Assembly (NCBI GenBank): GCA_050250855.1
Contig: JBFWNW010000002.1
Location: 192,001-256,000, forward strand
Reading direction: 5' to 3'
Length of the DNA: 64,000 nt
Origin: Candidatus Babeliales bacterium
GTDB lineage: Bacteria > Babelota > Babeliae > Babelales > JACPOV01
Shown: piece after piece, positions 6,278 through 45,714 of the stretch
How positions within the stretch are numbered: position 1 is the stretch's first letter
How the letters are laid out: every line of letters begins with the position of its first letter
The notes under the pieces: generated by a model
What the model saw: the letters and a program-made list of their open reading frames with translations, nothing else
Database searches by the model: none
Told to the model about the DNA's origin: nothing
Translations under genes and position numbers: made by a program

Positions 6278-8005
6278 ATGAAAAAATTATTATTTTTTCT
6301 ATTTTTATTTCTATCTATTCAAGCGCCTTTGCAGAGCTCTGAAAAAAAAGAACCATGCAAGCAAGACCCTTATAATTTTAATACATTTTACCTTAAAATT
6401 TTTTTAGATACGAAACAGGCCCATCCTCAAGAAAATTCTGAATATATAAAAAAAGAAGTTTTAGACTGTTTTTATAATCTTTTGGGAGATCAATTAGCTC
6501 TTTTATCCGCGGTTAATCTTTATAAGTCTTATTATGAAGCTCTGCTTAAAGCGAAGGAGGATTATAAGCAAAGTTTGGAGGCAGTTGGTGTTAAACCTAC
6601 TACCCACGGTCTTTATGAAATGAAATTTTCTCCTTCCTTTGAAGAGCTAAGCTTTATAATGACTAACAGATTATTATTTAAAACACAGATACTCTCTACC
6701 AGAGAAAAAATACATATACAAGCCTTGGCTATAGAAAAAGGAAAAGATCCTGTACTCAAGCCTTTGATTACTATTTTAATGAAGAAAAGTGAGTATGATG
6801 AAAAGCATAATGATATTCTGGCATTAGTAGCAACAATTTTAAAAAATGCCGAAAAAATAGAAAATCCTCGCTGCTGGACTTTTATAGAAAAATATACGGG
6901 ACAAAATCCCTTTAACTATGCAAATTCCATACTAGAGATATACAAAGAATGGATTGCTTCATATGCAAAAGATGCTTTATCTAAAAAAGAGTTTGGTGAT
7001 ATAAGCCCTGAGTTATTAAAAACATATCTTCAAGCATCATCTATGCACTTGGTTAACATAGAAATTTCTTTTAAGTTTAACGTTCTTATCAATGAAGATT
7101 TTTCTAAAGCAGATTATGCTTTTCTAGAAGATTTTATGTCTGTAATACAAGAATATCAAAAAGATGAAAAAAACATTGCTTGTTTTTCAGACTATCTTAA
7201 GAATTTTTTGATAAACAAAGGCTATATAAAAAAAGAAGAAGGATGGTCTTTACCATCGCTAAAAGACTCACAAGAAATATTTTTAAAGCAACAGGAATTA
7301 AAAAAAGAAGTTGTTATAAAACAGCTAGAGGAGCATGAAAAGGAAAAAAGATTAGAGCAAAAAGAACAAGAAAAAAAAGGGAAAAAGAAGCAGTCGGCAG
7401 TAACTGCAGCACCAGCATTTCTCGATGCTTCATGGATTAATAAAAATTATAAAGTTTCAGATAAAAGCATCGTTAGATCAATAAAGGGAGATCAGGTTAT
7501 TATCGATGACCAAAAAAATAATATGCTTATTACGTTGATAATCCCCGATAAAGAGATTTTACGTCCAACAACTATTCCTGCCATAAAATTTGATGAACGA
7601 GTAGAGCGCTGGTTTAAAAATCCTGAAAAAACGTTACATGAAATAGGTTCACTAACACCAGACGAAGAATTAGGAAAGCTGCAGGCTGAAAAGCTTCATC
7701 AAAAAAAGCTTGAAATAAAGCGGCATAATTTTGCACAGATGGTGGATCCATTTATTATGCTCTTTGGTGCCGATAGTATTCATATTGATAAAAAACAAAA
7801 TAAAATTCCTAATAAAACGTTGGTAGGGCAGTTGGAAGATAAAAATACGCATGAAAAATTTGTTGGTGTTTTTGGCTATGCACAAAACCCTAAAACAGGC
7901 ACCTGGTACCATAGATTTTTTAGCACCAAAAAACCACAAGAAATTGCGCAAACCTATTTTAAAGGTGCTACGTTTGATCTAGAGTACCCTCCTCTTGGAG
8001 AGTGA
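6278..8005 (+). CDS. Secreted hypothetical protein, paralog A (variable middle, conserved C-terminal domain)
   Basis: 575-aa ORF, signal peptide MKKLLFFLFLFLSIQAPLQS; C-terminal ~185 aa nearly identical to next gene. Confidence 0.8.
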   Translation: MKKLLFFLFLFLSIQAPLQSSEKKEPCKQDPYNFNTFYLKIFLDTKQAHPQENSEYIKKEVLDCFYNLLGDQLALLSAVNLYKSYYEALLKAKEDYKQSLEAVGVKPTTHGLYEMKFSPSFEELSFIMTNRLLFKTQILSTREKIHIQALAIEKGKDPVLKPLITILMKKSEYDEKHNDILALVATILKNAEKIENPRCWTFIEKYTGQNPFNYANSILEIYKEWIASYAKDALSKKEFGDISPELLKTYLQASSMHLVNIEISFKFNVLINEDFSKADYAFLEDFMSVIQEYQKDEKNIACFSDYLKNFLINKGYIKKEEGWSLPSLKDSQEIFLKQQELKKEVVIKQLEEHEKEKRLEQKEQEKKGKKKQSAVTAAPAFLDASWINKNYKVSDKSIVRSIKGDQVIIDDQKNNMLITLIIPDKEILRPTTIPAIKFDERVERWFKNPEKTLHEIGSLTPDEELGKLQAEKLHQKKLEIKRHNFAQMVDPFIMLFGADSIHIDKKQNKIPNKTLVGQLEDKNTHEKFVGVFGYAQNPKTGTWYHRFFSTKKPQEIAQTYFKGATFDLEYPPLGE

Positions 8006-8018
8006 TGCAGCGTAATTG
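7454..8018 (+). repeat. Direct repeat copy 1 (~565 bp), near-identical to 9249-9813
   Basis: Manual alignment at constant offset 1795, roughly a dozen mismatches in the coding part. Confidence 0.95.
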
Positions 8019-8072
8019 CTTTGGTATTTAAATCAATATTTTAATATAAAAAAGAGTAAAAAAGAGGATACT

Positions 8073-9800
8073 ATGAAAAAATTATTATTCTTTCTATTTT
8101 TATTTCTATCTCAAGCGCCTTTGCGGAGCTCAGAAAAAAAAGAATCATGCAGCCAAGATTCTTATAATTTTAATAAATTTTATCTAGATATTTTTATGAA
8201 AGCAAAAGAGAATTTCCCTCAACAAAAACCTGAAAACGTTTTATTTTCTTTTGTTGAGCTTTTGGCAGATCAACTTTATCTTTTATCTGCTTTTGATTAT
8301 TATACAGATTGGCATTCTAAGATGGCCGTCGCTCATCTTGATTATTTGTATAGTTTGGGCCTCGTGGGAGCTGTAGTAGTCGATGATTATTATTTTTTTG
8401 ACAAAGCAGTAGTAACTTCTCTTGAAGAATTAAATTTTATTTTGCATAACAAGTCATTATTTCTAAAAAATAATTTTACTGAAAATGATAAAGCGGAGAT
8501 TATTGCTTTAGATATAAATGAAAAAAATAAATCCCTCAGGCCTTGGATTAATATTCTTCTCAAAAAAAATGAATACCAGGAGCAGTATACGAGAGTTATA
8601 GCTACTATTTCACTTATTTTAATAAGGCTCATGGAGGTTGAGAGGAACCCTTATTGGGCATTTATACGTGATGAAACACAAAGCAGTCCCTTTATTTTTT
8701 TAAAGCAGATGCTACATACTTTGAAACAATGGGCTACTGCATATGCTGAGTTTATAGTGGATACTTCTGAAAAAGAACCTGAGAGGTTTACTAAAGAAGA
8801 GATTGAAAGAGGACGTATTTGCAAAGAAGTTTCTTCCGGAATATTGCAACCGGCTCAGCAAGCTTTAATGGTTGAAATGATGTCTAGAAACAAATTTACA
8901 GAATCTGAGATTCCTTATTTTAATGAATTTTCTTCCATAGTTAATAAATATAAAATGCGTGAAAGTTGTGTTACTAATTTTGCAGAATCTCTTAGTAAGA
9001 CATTGTTTAGTAAGAAGCTTGTAAAAAAAGGATTTTTTTTAAAAAATTTTGAACAAACAAAACAAGAATTGCTAAAGAATCTTATAGCAACAAAAGAAGA
9101 GCTTGAAAGGCGAGAAGTAGTATCTGAAAAAAAGGTCTTGCAAGCGCAAAAAAAACAAGAAAAACAAGAGAAAAAGAAGAAGTCAAAAGGCAAGCAGCCA
9201 ATAGTACCAGCAGCCCTCGATGTTGCATGGATTAATAAGAGCTATAACGTTTCAGATAAAAGCATCGTTAGCTCAATAAAGGATGATCAGGTTATTATCG
9301 ATGACCAAAAAAATAATATGCTTATTACGTTGATAATCCCCGATAAAGAGATTTTACGTCCAACAACTATTCCTGCCATAAAATTTGATGAACGAGTAGA
9401 GCGTTGGTTTAAAAATCCTGAAAAAACGTTACATGAAATAGGTTCACTAACACCAGACGAAGAATTAGGAAAGCTGCAGGCTGAAAAGCTTCATCAAAAA
9501 AAGCTTGAAATAAAGCGGCATAATTTTGCACAGATGGTGGATCCGTTTATTATGCTCTTTGGTGCCGATAGTATTCATATTGATAAGAAACAAAATAAAA
9601 TTCCTAATAAAACGTTGGTAGGGCAGTTGGAAGATAAAAATACGCATGAAAAGCTTATTGGTGTTTTTGGCTATGCACAAAACCCTAAAACAGGCACTTG
9701 GTACCATAGATTTTTTAGTACCAAAAAACCACAAGAAATTGCGCAAACCTATTTTAAAGGTGCTACGTTTGATCTAGAGTATCCTCCTCTTGGAGAGTGA
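8073..9800 (+). CDS. Secreted hypothetical protein, paralog B
   Basis: Start at ATG 8073 (same GGATACT-ATG context as paralog A); same signal peptide and C-terminal domain. Confidence 0.8.
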   Translation: MKKLLFFLFLFLSQAPLRSSEKKESCSQDSYNFNKFYLDIFMKAKENFPQQKPENVLFSFVELLADQLYLLSAFDYYTDWHSKMAVAHLDYLYSLGLVGAVVVDDYYFFDKAVVTSLEELNFILHNKSLFLKNNFTENDKAEIIALDINEKNKSLRPWINILLKKNEYQEQYTRVIATISLILIRLMEVERNPYWAFIRDETQSSPFIFLKQMLHTLKQWATAYAEFIVDTSEKEPERFTKEEIERGRICKEVSSGILQPAQQALMVEMMSRNKFTESEIPYFNEFSSIVNKYKMRESCVTNFAESLSKTLFSKKLVKKGFFLKNFEQTKQELLKNLIATKEELERREVVSEKKVLQAQKKQEKQEKKKKSKGKQPIVPAALDVAWINKSYNVSDKSIVSSIKDDQVIIDDQKNNMLITLIIPDKEILRPTTIPAIKFDERVERWFKNPEKTLHEIGSLTPDEELGKLQAEKLHQKKLEIKRHNFAQMVDPFIMLFGADSIHIDKKQNKIPNKTLVGQLEDKNTHEKLIGVFGYAQNPKTGTWYHRFFSTKKPQEIAQTYFKGATFDLEYPPLGE

Positions 9801-12143: not shown

Positions 12144-12260
12144 TAAAAAAAACTATTTTTAGATTAATGATATTTTTTTATTAAGTTTAATGGAATAGTT
12201 GGTTAAGTAAAATAAATATTTTTTATAGTATTATTTTGTTTATTATATTTTTAACAATTC

Positions 12261-12683
12261 ATTATCTCACAGTCCCTCTCCGGGACGGGACCAGCCCCTT
12301 TTGCTTGTACAAAAGGGCTGGACAAAAATACACCAACATGCTGTTGGATTGCACTCTCGCTCAGACATCAACCACTCACTCTTCGGGTTTTCAACCCTCG
12401 ATTTCAGGTCGATGATTCGCTACCGGCGTGAATGTATAAAAAATAGTTTAATGCACCGGTACGCTCATCTGTTTGAGAGCTTCTCAGTTTTCTTGCCCGG
12501 CGTAGCTTGATGCGAAGCCTGGGTAAAAAACTGGAAGCCGAGTTATGACCCTTCGATACAATTTCGATTTCATCGAAATCACTCAGGATGAGCGAAAGCC
12601 CTTGCGTGCCCGTCTGGGTGTTAAGGGTATTGGGCACGCAATACCTTTGTGCCCTGCACCCGGCATGAGGGTGCCATAAGATA
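12261..12683. repeat. Composite palindromic element 1 (modular, MITE/BIME-like)
   Basis: GC-richer intergenic block; about the first 200 bp is shared with 27124-27306, the right end is the reverse complement of 35912-35975, and internal modules recur at 27309 and 36018-36066. Confidence 0.9.
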
Positions 12684-13190: not shown

Positions 13191-13276
13191 GTTCGCACCC
13201 TTCGACAAGCTCAGGGCGAACGAAGATAAAAGTTTTGATATAACCGTTCGTGCTGAGCTTGTCGAAGCATACGAAC
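13191..13276. repeat. Inverted doublet of the CTTCGACAAGCTCAG module (REPIN-like)
   Basis: gttcgcacccttcgacaagctcagggcgaacg (13191-13222), 21-bp spacer, ccgttcgtgctgagcttgtcgaagcatacgaac (13244-13276). Confidence 0.93.
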
Positions 13277-16636: not shown

Positions 16637-16655
16637 AATTTTTTATCTAGGTTGT

Positions 16656-16732
16656 GTTCGTACCCTTCGACAAGCTCAGGGCGACTGAATAATCGGTCAT
16701 ACTGAGCGAGGGTTAACCCGAGTCGAAGTATA
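16656..16732. repeat. Inverted doublet of palindromic modules upstream of valS
   Basis: gttcgtacccttcgacaagctcagggcgac followed by inverted variant cggtcatactgagcgagggttaacccgagtcgaagta (matches reverse complement of 37478-37516). Confidence 0.9.
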
Positions 16733-21147: not shown

Positions 21148-21365
21148 TTCTTGCTACTTTTTTTTAATTCATGCTAGGATGACAAAGATAGTTTCACACT
21201 CATAACCCAAAGGAGATAGTGTTATGAAATTTTTCCGTAGTTTATCCTTTATTGCCTTTTTGGCAGTAGCTTGTGTTCATGCAGGAGAAGCACAAAGACT
21301 TTCTGGTGAATTAAAACAATTGGATATGCAACTTGATGGCTTGACCCAGTCTCTTAATAAATTGG
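21140..21365 (+). repeat. Duplicated promoter + RBS + N-terminal coding block (second copy ~22067-22293)
   Basis: tgatgtgattcttgc...cataacccaaaggagatagtgttatgaaatttttccgtagtttatc nearly identical in both copies. Confidence 0.92.
21151..21180 (+). promoter_or_regulatory. Putative sigma70 promoter, duplicated at 22078-22107
   Basis: TTGCTA-18 bp-TAGGAT with extended -10 TG, conserved in both copies, followed by GGAG RBS. Confidence 0.55.
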
Positions 21366-21946
21366 GAGAGGTGAAGTCAGAGCCTAAGAAAGCACCAAGA
21401 AATGTTTTTGAGCCTAAGCAACAAGTTATATTAAATGTAGAAAAACTACATTATATAATTTCATCTGAAGCTACTAAGTCATTGCTTGATGTTTTCCGTC
21501 AAGGATTAGCTGTGAATCCAATGCTAGCTTGGACTGATTTAAATAACATTCAAGCATCTGATAATTATGAAAAACCTATTGTTTTGATTCAAGCAATGGG
21601 AGATAAAAATGCATTATTTACACCTGCGCATAGTGGTGGATATTCTGCTATAACAGAAAAAATATTAGATGTTAATCATAAGACAAAAAAACCTATTTTT
21701 ATTATTTTGTCATCTAAAATTCCTGCAATTCAATCTAATGTTGAATGGTTTAAAAAAACACTTGCAGATCAGCTTAACGAACAAGATCATAAGAGCTTTG
21801 TAGCGAATGGAGGCACTATTTACTTCTTTACAACTAATGATGCTTTTTCAGAAATAATTAATTTTATGGATAATAACAGTTTCACAGATTATAATCAAAA
21901 GCAATTTAATGAAATTCATCAGCAGCTTAAATCAGAAGTATTATAA
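21224..21946 (+). CDS. Secreted hypothetical protein (signal + coiled coil + variable domain)
   Basis: MKFFRSLSFIAFLAVACVHA signal; LSGELKQLDMQLDGL heptads. Confidence 0.8.
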   Translation: MKFFRSLSFIAFLAVACVHAGEAQRLSGELKQLDMQLDGLTQSLNKLGEVKSEPKKAPRNVFEPKQQVILNVEKLHYIISSEATKSLLDVFRQGLAVNPMLAWTDLNNIQASDNYEKPIVLIQAMGDKNALFTPAHSGGYSAITEKILDVNHKTKKPIFIILSSKIPAIQSNVEWFKKTLADQLNEQDHKSFVANGGTIYFFTTNDAFSEIINFMDNNSFTDYNQKQFNEIHQQLKSEVL

Positions 21947-21970
21947 AATTAAGATCTTTTATTTTATGTC

Positions 21971-22002
21971 AATGGGACCCCTACTAGGTCCCATTTTTTT
22001 TT
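21971..22002 (+). terminator. Rho-independent terminator
   Basis: aatgggacc-cctacta-ggtcccatt followed by T run. Confidence 0.8.
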
Positions 22003-22151
22003 CTAGATAAAGGTTCTTTTTTCATTTTTTGTATTAAAACTTACCAGAGATTTTTATAGCAGGAATTGATGTGATTCTTGCAACTTTTTTTTAATTCATG
22101 CTAGGATGACAAAAGATAGTTTCACACTCATAACCCAAAGGAGATAGTGTT

Positions 22152-22892
22152 ATGAAATTTTTCCGTAGTTTATCTTTTATTGTTTTTCTGGCAACTGCCT
22201 GCGCTCATGCTGGTGAAGCACAAAGACTTTCTGGTGAATTAAAAAATTTAAATATGCAATTGGATGGCTTGAATGATTCTCTTGGCAAATTAGGTATGAT
22301 GCCAACTAGAACGCCAAAAGAAGAGCCAAAAGAAAAGTCTGCATATGAACGACAAATGGAGCTAGAAAGAGAGAGAGAAGAAAGAGAAAGTAAAAAAGAA
22401 GTGGCAGTTTTGGCTACACAAGCAGATCAACAATCAGCAACCGATATTGTTAAACAATTGCCGGATTTAAAAATTCAATTTAACGCATCTCCTAAATCTG
22501 TAATACCTCCTCATCTTGCTAATAATAAAGATTATGCTTTAGTTTTTTTATTTGATAAAGATGTTCCGTATATTCAAGAAGAAGAACATGAACAACAAAA
22601 AGCAACTATTGCAGCTGTAGTTGAACATTTTAAAAAGAATTATAAAGATTTGATAGAGAAATCTGCAAGTAGTATAACAAATCCTATATATGTTTTCTTT
22701 AGTGACAGAGTTTCTCAGCTCTATTCTTCAAATCTAGAAAGAGCATTGAAGAATGATTTAGAATTAGGAAAAATATTTACTCCAAAAAGACTAGAGCATT
22801 TTCAAATAATTACCCCAGAAGGGGGCAATTATAAGCTTAGTCAAAATGCGGTGCAAACTATATACAGTTTTGTACAGCAGTTTGAAAAATAA
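22152..22892 (+). CDS. Secreted hypothetical protein, paralog of 21224-21946 (N-terminus only)
   Basis: First ~47 aa highly similar, remainder not alignable by eye. Confidence 0.8.
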   Translation: MKFFRSLSFIVFLATACAHAGEAQRLSGELKNLNMQLDGLNDSLGKLGMMPTRTPKEEPKEKSAYERQMELEREREERESKKEVAVLATQADQQSATDIVKQLPDLKIQFNASPKSVIPPHLANNKDYALVFLFDKDVPYIQEEEHEQQKATIAAVVEHFKKNYKDLIEKSASSITNPIYVFFSDRVSQLYSSNLERALKNDLELGKIFTPKRLEHFQIITPEGGNYKLSQNAVQTIYSFVQQFEK

Positions 22893-22938: not shown

Positions 22939-22956
22939 AACCTCTAGGGGAATAGT

Positions 22957-24078
22957 ATGAAAAAACTTCTTCTCTTTTTATCAATAACTTCTCTTTATGC
23001 AGCGGAAATGCCGGATATTTCTGGTTTGCAGCAAGAACTGAATACATTAAATAATGAACTTGGAAATTTATCACAAAAATTGCAAGTAACGCAGCAATCA
23101 CGGTTTGCTCCACCTCCAATAATTCAACCAGCGCCAACTGGTGGTTCTGAAAAACCAGCGCCAAGCGGCCAACCTGGCCCGCAAAGAGGGGGGCAGCAGC
23201 AAGCGATGCCGGTTATTTATAATGATGAGAGTTATTTTAACCAAAAATTTCCTGAGTTAGCACAACAAGTTGGATTGCAAAACTATACAGGCTATAATAT
23301 TACCAATATAGCAAATGTTCCTAATTCAGATAAAGCAATAATACTTATTAATGCACAGAACAATTATGCTGTAGGATCTGCACTTACTAAACAAGTAGTT
23401 GCAGAGATTACGAAAAAAATCAAATATCCTATTGCTATCGGTATTTCAAATCAATCTTTTGACCCAGCTTGGTTATCAGACCGCATAAAAGAAGGAAAAG
23501 TCCTTATCGTTGATACAAACAATTTTAGCCAAGATAATAAAAATGAAATTTCTTATTATGTTCACAAACCATTAGTATCTACAGGCTCAATTCCCGTTTA
23601 TTTTTCGTTTCTTGGAGAGTATGAAGCTATGAAAATATTAAAACAATTAGTGCCGGGTATTGAGAAAAATTTGGGAAATTTTGTTGAAATAGAATCAGGA
23701 ACAAAAGCGCCAGCTGTAAACTTTACTCAAGCACAAAAAGGTATTTATATTGGAAAGATTAGAACTCGCGGCGCTGACCATGCGCTACATACTAATACCC
23801 CAAGCAGATTAAATAACTTTATTAATGCATATCAAACACCAATTGCTATTGTTATATACGCCGGAGCAGGTGAATTTAATGTTGAACTAGGTAATATTAA
23901 AGATATAGCAAAGAAAATATTAGAAGAAGGTCTTAAAGCAAAAGGAATCCTATCTATAACTCAAAATTTCGAAAACTTTCATGGTTTTGCTTTTGAATTA
24001 GACAAGGGCAATGTAGTAACAAGTCCTTCATATGCTAAAACAAGAATTGAAGAGCTCAAAAAACTTTTGGGTAACTAA
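22957..24078 (+). CDS. Secreted hypothetical protein (signal + coiled coil + P/Q/G linker)
   Basis: Signal ending LYA; EMPDISGLQQELNTLNNELG. Confidence 0.8.
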   Translation: MKKLLLFLSITSLYAAEMPDISGLQQELNTLNNELGNLSQKLQVTQQSRFAPPPIIQPAPTGGSEKPAPSGQPGPQRGGQQQAMPVIYNDESYFNQKFPELAQQVGLQNYTGYNITNIANVPNSDKAIILINAQNNYAVGSALTKQVVAEITKKIKYPIAIGISNQSFDPAWLSDRIKEGKVLIVDTNNFSQDNKNEISYYVHKPLVSTGSIPVYFSFLGEYEAMKILKQLVPGIEKNLGNFVEIESGTKAPAVNFTQAQKGIYIGKIRTRGADHALHTNTPSRLNNFINAYQTPIAIVIYAGAGEFNVELGNIKDIAKKILEEGLKAKGILSITQNFENFHGFAFELDKGNVVTSPSYAKTRIEELKKLLGN

Positions 24079-24086
24079 TTTCTAGA

Positions 24087-24127
24087 GAGGGATGAAGAAG
24101 CCTTTTTTCATCCCCCCGCCATTTTTT
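24087..24127 (+). terminator. Probable terminator
   Basis: gggatgaagaag...ttttttcatccc hairpin with T run. Confidence 0.55.
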
Positions 24128-24138
24128 GAAAGGTACGT

Positions 24139-24837
24139 ATGAAAAAACTTTTGCTTTTCTTTTCTCTTTTTTCTTTGCATGCAGCAGAAATGCCGAATAT
24201 TTCTGGTTTGCAGCAAGAGCTGAATACATTAAATAATGAACTTGGAAAATTATCAAAAAAATTAGAGGCAACGCAGCATCCGCAGGTTACTCCGCCGCCA
24301 ACAGGTCACCTAGGTCCTAAAGGAGGTCAGCAGCAAAAAATTCAAGTGCTGTTTCACGGCACCGATATAAATAATGCTCAAACATTTTTTAACCAGTTTG
24401 GCTTGCAGGGTAACTTTGAGTTTCTAAAATTACAAGATAATCTTAATATTATACAACCTGCACAAAAGGGTATTATATTGGTAAATTTTTCGGCAGGAAG
24501 GCAAAGAAATGTATTACCTTTAGAGCAAGATTTAAAAAAGAGTATAGATTTCTTTGATCAGCCTATTATTATTATGGTAAAACCAGGAACTGCTCAAAAT
24601 CTGCAGCCATACGATGGCCCTGTGGCAAAAATTGCACAAGAAAAGATTGCGGATACTGATAGCTCAAAATATTCTGACCAAGAAAATAAAAAAAGAATGG
24701 AAGAGGCATTAAAAAATCCAAAAGTAGCAAATATTAAAGGCTTTGGCTTTTGGTATACTCCTGACTTTACTATAATCAAGCAAGAAGATGATGCATATCA
24801 AAATAAAATCGATCAGCTCAAAAAACTTCTGCAGTAA
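24139..24837 (+). CDS. Secreted hypothetical protein, paralog of 22957-24078
   Basis: Shares EMPxISGLQQELNTLNNELG, GPxGGQQQ, AQKGI and C-terminal IxxLKKLL. Confidence 0.8.
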   Translation: MKKLLLFFSLFSLHAAEMPNISGLQQELNTLNNELGKLSKKLEATQHPQVTPPPTGHLGPKGGQQQKIQVLFHGTDINNAQTFFNQFGLQGNFEFLKLQDNLNIIQPAQKGIILVNFSAGRQRNVLPLEQDLKKSIDFFDQPIIIMVKPGTAQNLQPYDGPVAKIAQEKIADTDSSKYSDQENKKRMEEALKNPKVANIKGFGFWYTPDFTIIKQEDDAYQNKIDQLKKLLQ

Positions 24838-27123: not shown

Positions 27124-27600
27124 ATTATCTCATGGCCCTTACCCAGGGCGGGGCCAGCCCCTTTTGCTTGTACAAAAGGGCTGGACAAAAATACACCAAC
27201 ATGCTGTTGGATCCGCTTGCTCGCTCAGACATCAACCACTCATCCTTCGGCTTCAGGTCGATGATTCGCTACCGGAGTGAATGTATAAAAAATAGTTTAA
27301 TGCACCTTGACCCTTCGATACAATTTCGATTTCATCGAAATCACTCCCTTCGACAAGCTCAGGACAGGCAGGGTGAGCGCACAGAACTATACTTAGTATC
27401 AAAAATAAGAAATTTACATAAATGAATTCATTATAACGCGCTCATCTTGAGTGTTTTTCCGTTAGGAAAAATGTATCAGCCTGCCCGGCGAAGCTTTTTA
27501 GTCCGAAGAAGTTTTTAACGAAGGCGGATTATGCGAAGCCTGGGAAAGATAAAGCGCTTGAAAAGAGGCTGGTCCCGTCCCGGAGAGGGACTGGTAAGAT
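27124..27600. repeat. Composite palindromic element 2 with imperfect terminal inverted repeats and nested modules
   Basis: Left end atctcatggccct...ccagcccctttt; right end aaaagaggctggtcccgtcccggagagggactg is the reverse complement of the left end of element 1; nested inserts at 27346-27368 and 27478-27543. Confidence 0.92.
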
Positions 27601-29732: not shown

Positions 29733-30896
29733 ATGATCGATTTTGTTGAAGAAAAAAAAGAGTTCAGCGCAGGAGTTTCTATTAAAGTTTTAGGAATTGG
29801 CGGTGCTGGCGGTAATACCGTAAACAGTATGATTGATGCTGGTTTTGAAGGTATTGATTTTATTGTAGCAAATACTGATGCACAAGCATTACACTTATCA
29901 AAGGCACGCAATAAAATTCAGCTTGGCGTAAAATCAACCAAAGGCCTGGGTACTGGTGCAAATCCAGAACTGGGAAAACGAGCTGCAGAAGAAGATCTTG
30001 AAAAAGTAATGGAAGCTTTAGAAGATGCAGATATTGTATTTTTGACTGGCGGCATGGGCGGCGGCACAGGATCTGGCGCATTGCCCGTTGTAGCGCATGC
30101 ACTTAAAGAAAAAGGTATTTTATCAATTGCTGTTGTTACCAAGCCGTTTGTTTTTGAAGGAAAACGCCGTGCGCAAGTAGCAGAGAATTCTTTAGAACTT
30201 CTGAAAAAAGAAATTGATACGTTAATTATTATGCCGAATCAAAAACTACTTGATGTTGTTGATAAACATGTTTCTATGATTGATGCTTTTGCCATGATTA
30301 ATGAAGTTTTAAATAGATCCGTTAAAGGTATTGCTGATATTATTGCAAAAACAGGGCATATGAATGTTGATTTTGCAGACGTTCGCACTATCATGAAAGA
30401 TATGGGACTTGCTGTTATGGGAACGGGCAGAGCAAGCGGCGAAGACCGTGCAGAACTTGCTGCAATGGAAGCAATCGAATCGCCATTGCTTGAGAATATG
30501 AGCATTGCTGGAGCGCGTGGCGTATTGCTTAATATTACGGGCGGCAAAAACTTAGGGCTCCATGAAATCAGACAAGCGGCGAATATTATTTATGAACAAG
30601 CTGATGAAAACGCCAATATTATTCTAGGTTCTGTTATTGATGATTCGTTAACTGATGAAGTAATTGTTACCGTTATTGCAACGGGCTTTGAATCAAAAAA
30701 TGCTCAAGAATGCAAAAAACAAGAAGAGCCAATGCCGGTTAAAGCTACTATTAAAGATGGTTCAATGCAGTATGAAAAAGTAATGCCAGACTATAAAAAA
30801 GAAGAAGCAAAGAAATATGAATTGAGCTCTGTTGATGATCTTGATATTCCAACATTTATGCGTAAAAAAGAAGGCACAACAGGAAGAATTGACTAG
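29733..30896 (+). CDS. ftsZ: Cell division protein FtsZ
   Basis: GGMGGGTGSG, NVDFADV, C-terminal LDIPTFMR. Confidence 0.98.
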   Translation: MIDFVEEKKEFSAGVSIKVLGIGGAGGNTVNSMIDAGFEGIDFIVANTDAQALHLSKARNKIQLGVKSTKGLGTGANPELGKRAAEEDLEKVMEALEDADIVFLTGGMGGGTGSGALPVVAHALKEKGILSIAVVTKPFVFEGKRRAQVAENSLELLKKEIDTLIIMPNQKLLDVVDKHVSMIDAFAMINEVLNRSVKGIADIIAKTGHMNVDFADVRTIMKDMGLAVMGTGRASGEDRAELAAMEAIESPLLENMSIAGARGVLLNITGGKNLGLHEIRQAANIIYEQADENANIILGSVIDDSLTDEVIVTVIATGFESKNAQECKKQEEPMPVKATIKDGSMQYEKVMPDYKKEEAKKYELSSVDDLDIPTFMRKKEGTTGRID

Positions 30897-30897
30897 A

Positions 30898-31035
30898 GCT
30901 TTATCCTTCCCAGGCTTCGCATAATCCGCCTTCGTTAAAACTTCTTCGGACTAAAGAGCTTCGCCGGGCAAGCTGATACAATTTTCTACGCAAATCACTC
31001 AGGATGAGCGTATATTTTTATGCGCTCATCTTGTC
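30898..31035. repeat. Compound palindromic module (reverse complement of 27438-27555)
   Basis: ccttc[ccaggcttcgcataatccgccttcg...cttcgccgggcaagct]gataca...cactcaggatgagcg followed by a truncated inverted arm cgctcatcttg. Confidence 0.9.
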
Positions 31036-35911: not shown

Positions 35912-36390
35912 ATCTTACGGCGCCTTCATGCCAGGCGCAGGGCATAAGGGTATTGCGTGCCCAATACCCTTAACACAAGGGCACATAAGAGAAGATCTCT
36001 TATGTATCTCTCTGCACTCATAACTCGGCTTCCAGATTTTTTCCAAAAATCTGAGAAGCTCTCAAACCTATGAGCTTTCAAGGTGCATAAAATTAAATTG
36101 ACTCTTCGATACAATTTACTACGTAAATCTTTCAGAGTGAAAGCGGAATAAAGATAGAAATTATATTTATGCGCTCATCTTGCCTGTCCTGCCGTGCCCG
36201 ACGTAGCTTTTATGCGAAGTCTGGGAGTTTATCGAAGGGAGTGTTTTTCCGCTAGGAAAAATGTATCAGCCTGCCCGGCGAAGCTCTTTAGTCCGAAGAA
36301 GTTTTAACGAAGGCGGATTATGCGAAAGCCTGGGAAAGATAAAGCGCCTGAAAAGGGGCTGGCTCTGTTCCGAATAGGGCCATGAGTAAT
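35912..36390. repeat. Composite palindromic element 3 with triple nesting
   Basis: Left end is the reverse complement of the element 1 right end; right half matches 27438-27570; nested inserts at 36183-36239 and 36192-36225. Confidence 0.92.
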
Positions 36391-43450: not shown

Positions 43451-44167
43451 TCATTGCTTTTTAATCTGGCCTTCAGGTTTGGGTTTAAAAAGCTGATTCA
43501 AAAATTGTTGTTCTTGTATCTCTTGAGTTAGTTTTAAGAGCTTTCTTTGTAAGCTCAAATTATCTGCATAAATATTTAGTTCTTCTTGTAATGAATTTTT
43601 TTCATCTAAATTTTCTTGAGAATGCTCTCTGTCACTTTCTGTTTTTTCTTGTGAATTTGCAGAAGAATAGCTTTGAGAAGATTCCTCTCCTCTCTGTGCT
43701 TCAGGCCTTTTTTCATTTTTTTTCTTAGCAAACCATGCTTTAAAGGTAGTTAGAATGCAATCTTTATAGGTATACAAGCCATAGCACAATAATCCTATAC
43801 CAGTAATAACTACAGCAGTAATCACTATAGGTTTAGAGAAAAAAAATTCAGGGTGTTCTTGTAGATCTTTGTCTAGTTCTGGGAGTGCGACATCAATACA
43901 ATTTTTTTGTTCTAGTGATTGTTCTACCTGGGCGCTAACTGTTTGAACGGCGGGGGTAAAGCTTTCTACAGCAAAAGAAGGGGTATTATTAAAATCTTTA
44001 ACTACAGCTTGTTCTCTGTTTTGGAAGGCAAAAAGACCCACAGACCAGTAGCCAGCAGTCATATCAGCCCAAAGAGGTTGTGCGGATAGAGAAACAGATA
44101 AAAATAGTAATATATAACGTATATTCATAATAACACTCCATTTAATGTTCATATTTCTATTATGCAT
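43451..44167 (-). CDS. Hypothetical protein with signal peptide and one TM (true start probably a downstream Met)
   Basis: MNIRYILLFLSVSLSA; TM ending CYGLY; charged tail. Confidence 0.7.
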   Translation of the reverse strand: MHNRNMNIKWSVIMNIRYILLFLSVSLSAQPLWADMTAGYWSVGLFAFQNREQAVVKDFNNTPSFAVESFTPAVQTVSAQVEQSLEQKNCIDVALPELDKDLQEHPEFFFSKPIVITAVVITGIGLLCYGLYTYKDCILTTFKAWFAKKKNEKRPEAQRGEESSQSYSSANSQEKTESDREHSQENLDEKNSLQEELNIYADNLSLQRKLLKLTQEIQEQQFLNQLFKPKPEGQIKKQ

Positions 44168-44820
44168 TAATGGAGGAATAGTGCAAGTGGCTTAGCCAAA
44201 AATGACTGTAGCACGTAAAAAAGGGGGATTAGGGCTATAATTGAATCAAAACGATCTAGAAGGCCGCCATGGCCAGGTAGAAGGGTGCCCGCATCTTTGC
44301 GCTGAGCACAGCGTTTGAGCCACGATTCAAAGAGGTCGCCTCCTGTGGCCACGAGCGCAATCAGGATGCTCAGAGCAGCAAAATAAGCATTTGATAGAGC
44401 CCAAGGCTTGAATGCAAGAAGTACTATAAAAACAGCTATAAGCCCCCCTAAAAACCCTTCCCAGGTTTTTTTAGGGCTTAAAGAAGGAGCAAGAAGGTGC
44501 TTACCTATTAAATTTCCAACCAGGTAGGCAGCAGTATCATGGCAAAAAGCTATAACAAAAAGAAGCTGTACCAGCTTGATATTTTGGTAGGCCATATAAG
44601 CAAGGAGCGCAAAGGGGACGCCAAGGTAGCAGGTTGCAAGAATAAGGTAATTTTGTGCTGAACGTGAAAGCTGCGGCAATTCTGTGCAAAGGATAAGAAA
44701 AAGAATCGTAGCCAAAAGAGTATAAAAAATCCAAAAAGGAAGAAAAAAGAGTGATGCCAAAATGATGAAAGAAAAGAGAAGGCCTGTAATGCTCCGTGTT
44801 AAAAATTCTTGAAAGTTCAT
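44167..44820 (-). CDS. cdsA: Phosphatidate cytidylyltransferase
   Basis: DTAAYLVG, SPKKTWEG, GDLFESWLKR, PGHGGLLDRFD. Confidence 0.95.
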   Translation of the reverse strand: MNFQEFLTRSITGLLFSFIILASLFFLPFWIFYTLLATILFLILCTELPQLSRSAQNYLILATCYLGVPFALLAYMAYQNIKLVQLLFVIAFCHDTAAYLVGNLIGKHLLAPSLSPKKTWEGFLGGLIAVFIVLLAFKPWALSNAYFAALSILIALVATGGDLFESWLKRCAQRKDAGTLLPGHGGLLDRFDSIIALIPLFYVLQSFLAKPLALFLH

Positions 44821-44854: not shown

Positions 44855-45356
44855 TTATTCCGTTCGCCCTGACCCCTCGTCAGCTTTGCAGCCGCTCGGG
44901 ACTAAAGGCAATTCGAGGGGAGCATGCCCTGAGCTTGTCGAATGGGTCGAAGGGTGCGAACGATTTATAATATTTATTTGTTGCTTAACTCTATTATTTT
45001 AGTCCAATTGCCATTAATTAAAGCGTTTTTCTTTTCTCGTGACCATTCTTTAATTTTTTGTTCAGCAATTAGTGCATCAACTCTTTCCTCAAATTTTTCT
45101 AAAAATACTAATTCTATAGGGAGGCGAGTTGATGTATAGCTTGCATATTTTTTATCATTATGTTCAGCTAATCTCTTTTCAATATTATCTGTATGCCCAG
45201 TATAATATGAGTTGTCTGAACATTTTAGTATATAAACATAAAAATTCATTATGAGTTCGTATCCTTCGACAAGCTCAGGACGAATGGAGTGAAGTGCTGA
45301 GCGAAGCGTTTACTACTGAGTATTAATCGAAGTATCAGGATGAACGGAGAATAATT
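44855..45356. mobile_element. GIY-YIG nuclease gene enclosed by inverted palindromic modules (candidate autonomous element)
   Basis: Left arm ccgttcgccctg...agc...gtcgaagggtgcgaacg (44860-44962); right arm gttcgtatccttcgacaagctcaggacgaatgg (45255-45287) plus more module fragments to ~45347. Confidence 0.65.
44974..45249 (-). CDS. Small GIY-YIG endonuclease (YhbQ/UPF0213-like)
   Basis: FYVYIL...YYTGHT...KRLAEH...AEQKIK.WSR.KK signature intact. Confidence 0.93.
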   Translation of the reverse strand: MNFYVYILKCSDNSYYTGHTDNIEKRLAEHNDKKYASYTSTRLPIELVFLEKFEERVDALIAEQKIKEWSREKKNALINGNWTKIIELSNK

Positions 45357-45714
45357 AACCATACCTCTCCTGCTTAGTGAATGCATTAGGAATATACTGT
45401 AATGAATTTTCATTAACTGCTCCCTGAATGAGCGCAACATCAAAACGGAAGACTTTATTGGTAAGCTGCTTTGAGGCTATATAATGCTGTGCTGCTTTAA
45501 TTATTTTTTTTTGTTTTCCATAAGTAATAACTTCAGAAAGATTATACTGATGTGTTGTGCGGGTTTTGACTTCTACAAAGATGACAAGATCTTCTTTCTT
45601 TGCAATAATATCAACTTCACCATAGAATTTTTTATAGTTGCGTTCAAGAATGGTAAAGCCTTGTTTTTGTATAAACTGAGCAACCAGACTTTCTCCCTGT
45701 GTTCCTAAGTTCAT
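45355..45714 (-). CDS. yraN: YraN family (UPF0102) protein
   Basis: GEVDIIA, FVEVKTR, RFDV, IPNAF. Confidence 0.93.
   Translation of the reverse strand: MNLGTQGESLVAQFIQKQGFTILERNYKKFYGEVDIIAKKEDLVIFVEVKTRTTHQYNLSEVITYGKQKKIIKAAQHYIASKQLTNKVFRFDVALIQGAVNENSLQYIPNAFTKQERYG

Follow-up and report, generated by a model that had tools for sequence, protein, structure and literature searches.

SsnA of Neisseria meningitidis is a 94-aa single-domain GIY-YIG protein assigned to cd10448, which binds the NTS hairpin only as single-stranded DNA (ssDNA) and cuts upstream of it, with no RNA binding (PMC11893778). This enzyme modulates transformation via the NTS repeats, and in three further species the Ssn homologs cut next to the repeats that flank their genes (PMC11893778). 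The NTS-ssnA-NTS layout has been likened by its authors to IS200/IS605 and REP/BIME arrangements, and domestication has been raised; homologs of SsnA were recognized in that work by a tblastn criterion of E<1e-10 (PMC11893778). The only Dependentiae genome covered in that work, that of Babela massiliensis, has 0 SRM and no homolog (PMC11893778). An earlier note on the locus analysed here knew of no mechanistic description of such a pairing, a statement that no longer stands since the characterization of Ssn nucleases with NTS/SRM hairpins in 2025 (PMC11893778). The general idea of a REP-like partnership between a nuclease and a hairpin is thus already in print, because Chenal et al. 2025 describes the NTS-ssnA-NTS layout (PMC11893778). 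A literature search for GIY-YIG/hairpin-repeat pairing, with subscription journals outside its coverage, found only Chenal et al. 2025.

REP/REPIN-RAYT systems and the BIMEs of Escherichia coli provide a second comparison. As in the available descriptions of these systems, the repeats considered here are short intergenic palindromes, mostly inverted doublets of two arm types, and a single-copy nuclease gene lies between inverted copies of the repeat associated with it (PMC3116915, PMC3333891). Unlike RAYT, which is an HUH/Y1 enzyme, the enzyme here is of the GIY-YIG type (PMC3116915, PMC3333891). CGTC-tagged palindromes are likewise REP-like with a short tag at one end, but the tag here is CCGYTC, and CGTC-like letters occur inside the stem of some copies only (PMC3733652). 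The term "GIY-YIG" has no occurrence in the paper on CGTC-tagged palindromes (PMC3733652). The nearest relatives by sequence are UPF0213 proteins (B. subtilis YazA and E. coli YhbQ type; PDB 1zg2 and 1ywl). Bacillus yazA belongs to a trmNF-yazA-rsmI operon without flanking repeats, whereas the gene at the present locus is a hairpin-flanked insertion. GIY-YIG homing endonucleases of the I-TevI type differ as well, as the protein here has no joined DNA-binding domain and no intron or phage setting. GIY-YIG enzymes act hydrolytically and are not known to form a covalent DNA intermediate, and the peel-and-paste mechanism is therefore not simply transferable to them.

The window is a 64,000-nt stretch of DNA (G000:C2:192001-256000) from the source genome G000, which comprises 1.22 Mb in 11 contigs, with 36% G+C and 95% completeness. 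A 91-aa GIY-YIG gene between yraN and cdsA had been reported from the sequence, and the Pfam matches of the three genes agree with this (Table 1). The PF01541 match extends over residues 3-74 of the protein (E=9e-19). The gene has a chromosomal, intergenic setting and encodes a single-domain protein in which no second domain was found. Its ORF is intact and its catalytic-type residues are conserved; Y6, Y16, G18, R26, H30, and E63 do not vary in an alignment of 36 sequences of its clade, referred to below as clade A. The genome contains three GIY-YIG matches, namely the window gene, one inside a 445-aa open frame, and one at C1:93273-93533. No transposase or integrase Pfam domain is present in the 61 window ORFs of at least 90 aa, and a search for a Y1/RAYT gene (PF01797) gave 0 matches in the 95%-complete genome, with its control positive in 6 of 14 named genomes. 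As had been claimed, no transposase, integrase, or RAYT gene was thus found in the window, and RAYT/IS200 was rejected as the driver because of the absent Y1_Tnp match in G000. Elsewhere in the window, two neighbouring paralogous ORFs without Pfam match (6278-8002 and 8016-9797; 575 and 594 aa) have 300-nt stretches in common at 95% identity, and more tandem paralog pairs occur at 21184-22294 and 22955-24327.

Table 1. Features of the window, with the loci of a further small GIY-YIG type in relatives
Feature	Position	Strand	Evidence
cdsA (CTP_transf_1), downstream neighbour	44167..44820	-	PF01148 E=6.5e-44
Downstream inverted compound arm	44860..44962	+	nested second loop module + CCCCTCG...CGAGGGG hairpin
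Stand-alone GIY-YIG nuclease gene (clade A, apparently sister to Ssn and UPF0213)	44974..45249	-	PF01541, own-clade HMM
Upstream hairpin arm, gene-strand sequence CCATTCGTCCTGAGCTTGTCGAAGGATACGAAC	45255..45287	-	matches generic hairpin pattern
Upstream extension, degenerate second arm module	45288..45347	-	resembles extended right arms elsewhere
yraN (UPF0102), upstream neighbour, ancestral partner of cdsA	45355..45714	-	PF02021 E=3e-25
Hairpin of the same superfamily, long inner stem	12550..12592	-	generic pattern match
Gene-less doublet (type 1 arm, ~22-nt spacer, inverted type 2 arm)	13191..13276	+	F1 core
Solo arm, F1 family	16655..16684	+	F1 core at 16664
F1 core within mosaic repeat region	27347..27363	+	core match
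Third small GIY-YIG type	L024-L030, L032 (relatives G015, G009, G003, G016, G025, G002, G024, G006)		

In the placement of the protein, a Sphingorhabdus gene with exact NTS copies on both sides (L099) serves as the Ssn reference and stands in for the N. meningitidis protein. A N. lactamica genome found by its NTS copies gave no such reference, as its only small GIY-YIG gene is of the YhbQ type without NTS flanks. The 91-aa protein is 30% identical to L099 (38.9 bits), 36% identical to an Ssn-like gene of S. meliloti, 44% identical to B. subtilis YazA (76 bits), and 50.5% (blastp) or 51.7% (tblastn) identical to a clade-A gene of Sphingomonas. It scores 160 bits on the HMM of its own clade, 87 on the YazA-type HMM, and 42 on the Ssn-type HMM; the corresponding medians for 30 held-out clade-A proteins are 158, 78, and 42 bits, and the Ssn and YazA groups behave symmetrically on the three HMMs. 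Profile-profile comparison (hhalign) gives E values of 5e-32 between clade A and YazA, 2e-15 between clade A and Ssn, and 4e-10 between Ssn and YazA. Among solved structures, the UPF0213 proteins 1zg2 (E=5e-15) and 1ywl (E=8e-13) match best, while the TIGR01453 score is 14 bits against a cut-off of 56 and the NCBIfam search assigned no family. Taken from sequence comparison, these values lean towards a separate clade that would be nearer to UPF0213/YazA than to Ssn and outside the core family.

Several features are common to clade A and Ssn. Both are single-domain GIY-YIG proteins of ~90-100 aa (91 aa here), and both possess a C-terminal K-x-W-x-R...L-I...W signature with two conserved Trp residues that is absent in YazA. 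In both, inverted copies of a genome-dispersed hairpin flank the gene on each side. Supplementary Data 4 of the Ssn paper contains two Aestuariicella genomes assigned to cd10448 by psiblast with a CDD score ≤100 and no tblastn homolog (PMC11893778). One clade-A protein carries an Aestuariicella strain as its source name, and these entries give a hint only of a tie between clade A and cd10448.

The two arms around the window gene occupy the places that the earlier note had assigned to them, 5 bp from the start and 11 bp past the stop. The upstream arm, whose inner 3-bp stem is TCC/GGA, ends 5 nt short of the ATG, and the downstream arm starts 11-12 nt past the stop codon. The two extra inserts claimed for the latter arm are also found: nested within it are a further loop-module copy and an unrelated hairpin, CCCCTCG...CGAGGGG, and the same compound arm is found again at ~9 further places in G000. 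The extension on the upstream side resembles extended right arms at C4:57928, C4:106863, C4:155586, C4:173290, and C1:389308. The proposal that the upstream arm supplies the RBS (GAAGGA) is weak and was rejected, as this motif ends 12 nt ahead of the ATG and the arm-to-gene distance varies among relatives. No target-site duplication is definable around the cassette, because the flanks TTATT/AATAA belong to the palindrome. Five public DNA runs but no RNA run were listed for this sequence; the contigs of four of the DNA runs end inside the downstream arm, which is expected of a repeat. No junction that skips the cassette, whether as an empty or an excised site, was found in the reads and contigs of the four public runs; the "letters between" rows of these runs, considered as excision, are other doublets.

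The arms belong to a repeat family, designated F1, whose 17-nt core is found at 6 positions in the window, where 0.08 would be expected. A generic hairpin pattern, YTCRNSSYGAG-N(4-50)-TCGARSS, gives 116 matches in the 1.2-Mb genome against 0-1 in five Markov controls, and the S-S dinucleotides are complementary in 115 of these 116. Although ORFs of at least 150 aa span 86% of G000, 108 of the 116 hairpins lie outside them. The count of 8 or more further intergenic sites with related modules was not reproduced within the window, in which three other core sites were found (the doublet at 13191-13276, 16664, and 27347), plus the related hairpin at 12550-12592; across the genome the number is far higher, at 116 matches. 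The remaining window repeats are of different families. Among them, mosaic modules unrelated to F1 (27424-27593, 30895-30986, 36157-36379, 12219-12682, and 35912-36075) recur in several intergenic regions, both directly and inverted, with arms of up to 71 nt at 97%.

Approximately 80 F1 core arms are present in G000. They are of two types with a common loop and a common outer GTTCG/CGAAC stem, which differ by compensating changes in the inner 3-bp stem (CCC/GGG versus TGC/GCA). Gene-less hairpins are mostly inverted doublets in unrelated intergenic regions, and 32 convergent doublets consist of a type 1 arm, an AT-rich spacer, and an inverted type 2 arm. The divergent pair of two type 1 arms is found only at the window gene among 73 arm clusters; the arm order of F1 doublets is opposite to that around the gene, and this reversal rules out gene-less F1 doublets as simple internal deletions of the cassette. 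A subset of doublets (e.g., C1:322429, C4:3617, and C4:196054) has ~30 nt of extra conserved sequence on each side, forming an element of ~150 nt that ends in an inverted repeat of its own, TTATCCATAAATT / AATTTATGGATAA. Another F1 doublet, with a nested arm, lies in the region G000:C2:110654-112112, at ~111925-112112 and ~1.0-1.4 kb beyond the GIY-YIG match in the 445-aa open frame. That frame is presumably uvrC; it is only 445 aa long.

The hairpin has a conserved tag on its 5' side, CCGYTC, and a short stem that covaries; its 13-nt loop, TGAGCYTGTCGAA, is also conserved, whereas the Ssn hairpin has CGTC and a tight loop. Loop and tag are nearly invariant among 91 distinct short-loop hairpins. 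In the alignment of these hairpins, where 2 of the 10 pairs are partly constrained by the search pattern (S on both sides), 108 cells are changed on both sides of the stem against 21 in shuffles, and every slid control is lower. Pair 8-26, unconstrained by the pattern, is always paired (UA 58, CG 25, GC 5, UG 3). Conservation sets in sharply at the 5' CCG and declines beyond the stem on its 3' side, which makes the element an oriented one, as the Ssn hairpin is by its conserved 5' flank. The doublet at 13191-13276 forms a single long palindromic fold (-28.3 kcal/mol, z -7.8), the downstream compound arm folds at -21 kcal/mol (z -2.0), and the upstream arm alone, as ssDNA, folds weakly at -3.4 kcal/mol (z -0.6). 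Energetics by itself is insufficient here; the compensating changes between the arm types argue that the small hairpins are selected units.

Such covariation is also compatible with RNA structure, and the arms lie directly 5' and 3' of the ORF, so that the hairpins might be thought to act as RNA, namely as terminators, stabilizers, or autoregulatory sites of the nuclease mRNA, with a regulatory link between gene and repeat. This reading is extremely improbable, given that the copies are for the most part inverted doublets without a gene, in unrelated intergenic regions, that Rfam at gathering score returned two tRNAs only and no family for the hairpins, and that the sister family Ssn acts on ssDNA without RNA binding (PMC11893778).

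The position of the cassette can be compared with yraN loci fetched from 29 relatives of the same order, none of which (0/29) has a GIY match. The gene order TPR protein-yraN-cdsA recurs in these relatives; yraN adjoins cdsA in 15 of the 29 loci, with a gap of at most 51 nt in 11 of the 15, versus 534 nt in G000. The absence of GIY from all 29 loci and the adjacency in 15 together identify the ~530-nt cassette as an insertion, which is lineage-specific and represents a filled site versus empty sites in relatives. The suggested check of yraN-cdsA contiguity thus supports the earlier note, and a vertically inherited yhbQ ortholog is not what occupies this locus, as the gene is absent there in 29 of 29 relatives. 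In the same-genus genome G001, a GIY homolog with 67% identity lies on another contig than yraN, and no GIY remnant was detected by tblastn in the yraN-cdsA spacer (~620 nt). Within that spacer (L172 860-1500), neither a GIY remnant nor a convincing ORF was seen. Relative G021 has two clade-A hairpins between the TPR gene and yraN (L176 1355-1460), the only such case among 30 yraN loci and thus one more insertion difference specific to a single site.

The other stand-alone GIY-YIG copy in G000, at C1:93273-93533 (L002/L033 1501-1779), has 58% identity to the window gene. Inverted arms of another repeat family, F2 (CCGTTCGTGGTGAGGAG...GTCTCGAACC; ~37 arms in G000), enclose it in the same orientation. 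This copy has no in-frame start codon, with an ATG in another frame, and is therefore either a frameshifted pseudogene or the product of an assembly error in a T run. The arm order in F2 doublets is the same as that around the F2-flanked gene. G000 thus contains two stand-alone GIY-YIG genes, each bracketed by its own repeat family, and provides two nuclease-repeat pairs within 1.2 Mb, one of them apparently broken.

Pairing of the gene with hairpins extends to related genomes. Among 16 loci of strong homologs in 15 Babeliales genomes, with flanks read by eye, 10 have the gene between two arms and 5 have an arm in a single flank; the one locus without any arm holds a truncated gene. The arm sequence varies between genomes at these 16 loci. 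In 41 genomes, the presence of a strong homolog (E<1e-15) was compared with the count of hairpin-pattern matches, kin genomes not being independent samples. Fourteen of the 15 genomes with a strong homolog hold 4-181 matches, and the remaining one, G028, with a truncated gene, holds 0. Without a strong homolog, 20 of 26 genomes hold 0-1 hairpins and 6 hold 14-71 (G005, G006, G017, G019, G025, and G030). The reversed-pattern control gives 0-3 matches per strand across the 41 genomes. Because of the split between 14/15 and 20/26 and of the six hairpin-rich exceptions, the gene-hairpin link across these kin genomes is strong but not absolute. The correlation of copy number with gene presence that the earlier note had suggested is accordingly borne out on both sides of the split (at least 4 hairpins in 14/15 genomes with the gene, at most 1 in 20/26 without it), except in the 6/26 gene-less genomes with 14-71 hairpins.

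These exceptions bear on the reading in which the hairpins are landing pads, such that a selfish homing-type nuclease gene cuts or recognizes pre-existing repeats and is copied in, while the hairpins multiply otherwise, by replication slippage, recombination, or a host enzyme. The 14-71 hairpins in 6 of 26 relatives without a strong homolog would fit this picture, as would the ~37 arms that F2 keeps though its gene is without an in-frame start, and the F2 doublets, whose arm order is that around the F2-flanked gene, as if the gene had entered a doublet spacer. Nevertheless, F1 doublets have the opposite arm order to that around the F1-flanked gene, orientation stays fixed and the 5' tag is retained across phyla, and no other mobilizing enzyme was found, with Y1 absent in the genome and transposase and integrase domains absent in the window. 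Overall, the landing-pad reading is quite unlikely.

In the Babeliales relatives, the homologs are found in unrelated contexts, often in several copies or broken, with up to 8 matches per genome, some of which contain internal stops. This distribution and the lineage-specific site of the cassette speak against a domesticated, host-serving function of the kind proposed for Neisseria SsnA, in which the nuclease would restrict hairpin-bearing ssDNA, the repeats would be kept for that, and the cassette would now be immobile. Such a function is very unlikely here, even though the single-copy window gene is unbroken and retains conserved catalytic residues and SsnA does modulate transformation through NTS repeats (PMC11893778).

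Beyond Babeliales, a search with clade A returned 409 protein clusters at E≤1e-5, with sources that include Thermodesulfobacteriota, Nitrospirae, and Gammaproteobacteria. A clade-A homolog on a Sphingomonas plasmid (52% identity) has the same kind of hairpin upstream. Of 80 metagenome clade-A loci, 67 have a hairpin in at least one flank, comprising 39 with hairpins on both sides and 28 with one side only; the other 13 have none there. Hairpin density at these loci is 3.63/kb in the flanks versus 0.071/kb further out (~50-fold), and orientation is biased, with "+" in 48 of 57 upstream matches and "-" in 58 of 83 downstream matches. The suggested enrichment of the module beside homologs is therefore present (67/80 loci, ~50-fold flank density), and a lack of repeat association among homologs, which would have spoken against the proposed system, is not observed. 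Several clade-A database proteins bear N- or C-terminal tails that are translated hairpin.

Coincidence, that is, an ordinary housekeeping gene of the UPF0213/YhbQ type with REP-like elements inserted on both sides by chance, could draw on the structural matches to 1zg2 and 1ywl (E=5e-15 and 8e-13) and on the YazA profile (E=5e-32). It is barely credible all the same. The gene is absent at the locus in 29/29 relatives, hairpins are enriched ~50-fold beside the gene at 80 metagenome loci, a second G000 gene and a second repeat family are arranged alike, and Bacillus yazA stands in its trmNF-yazA-rsmI operon without such repeats. This reading has been largely refuted already by the 29 yraN loci and the 80 metagenome loci. 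The evidence supports gene and hairpins as a specific, recurrent pair with a REP/RAYT-like layout.

Each protein clade keeps its own hairpin type. The published SRM pattern gives 0 matches in G000 versus 0-4 in 5 Markov controls and 1 match at 95 clade-A loci (342 kb), and the same scan is positive beside the Ssn-type genes L099 and L019. Ssn-type genes occur in Babeliales relatives as well (L019-L022, in G018, G040, G019, and G034), where they are flanked by NTS/SRM-like hairpins, CGTCATCCC...GGGATCCAG, and no clade-A hairpin is present there. Types are specific to clades, as L019-L022 are without the clade-A hairpin and clade-A loci are nearly without SRM. The clade-A pairing is a sister version of the published Ssn nuclease/hairpin-repeat pairing, not a new class.

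By analogy with Ssn (PMC11893778), an oriented-hairpin partnership together with Ssn-like cutting of ssDNA beside the hairpin probably describes this system. The cassette consists of a hairpin, the nuclease gene, and an inverted hairpin, inserted between yraN and cdsA. The clade-A nuclease would bind its own oriented hairpin in ssDNA and cut next to it, as Ssn does, and gene-less hairpins may be non-autonomous derivatives or partners of the cassette. The ssDNA cutting in this model is drawn from the analogy with Ssn, the available description of which concerns its own repeats (PMC11893778). Points that count against the cassette model are the sequence similarity to YazA, which has no associated repeats in Bacillus, the 13/80 loci without a pattern match, the weak single-arm fold, the six hairpin-rich relatives without a strong homolog, G028 without hairpins, the reversed arm order of F1 doublets, the lack of a definable target-site duplication, and the kinship of the genomes compared.

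Whether the nuclease also causes the spread of the hairpins is a separate matter, for which the chances appear somewhat below even. Spreading is doubted because six hairpin-rich genomes are gene-less, F2 persists beside a broken gene, the F1 arm order is reversed, and no empty or excised form was seen. Of the REP/RAYT-like selfish system proposed in the earlier note, the specific recurrent pair and its layout are thus retained, and nuclease-driven copying and self-insertion are weakened by the 14-71 hairpins of 6/26 gene-less relatives and by the lack of any excised site seen. A broader reading would regard clade-A genes and CCGYTC-tagged hairpins (loop TGAGCYTGTCGAA) as an undescribed, phylum-spanning class of mobile elements, parallel to yet distinct from Ssn/SRM, in which a ~0.5-kb autonomous cassette with a hydrolytic nuclease acting on single-stranded hairpins seeds gene-less doublets. 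This is a tentative proposal and on the unlikely side; if true, the hairpin partnership would date back to the common ancestor of the entire Ssn/UPF0213 branch of GIY-YIG enzymes.

If the clade-A enzyme does cut ssDNA next to the hairpin that belongs to it, this would make a second large group of ssDNA nucleases available, each with a target readable from its flanks. The clade-A recognition element differs from that of Ssn, and ssDNA nucleases are wanted as ssDNA tools. A cassette that cuts at its own hairpin would also explain the repeat-derived peptide tails on clade-A proteins of other phyla. The pairing further bears on a question left by the Ssn paper, namely whether nuclease-hairpin pairs are mobile elements (PMC11893778).

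A third small GIY-YIG type, without a clade-A hairpin in its locus, was observed in eight relatives (Table 1). These proteins have ~80-100 aa and end in ...KSGSGRAF.KKR.., and they may represent the resident housekeeping form in the order.
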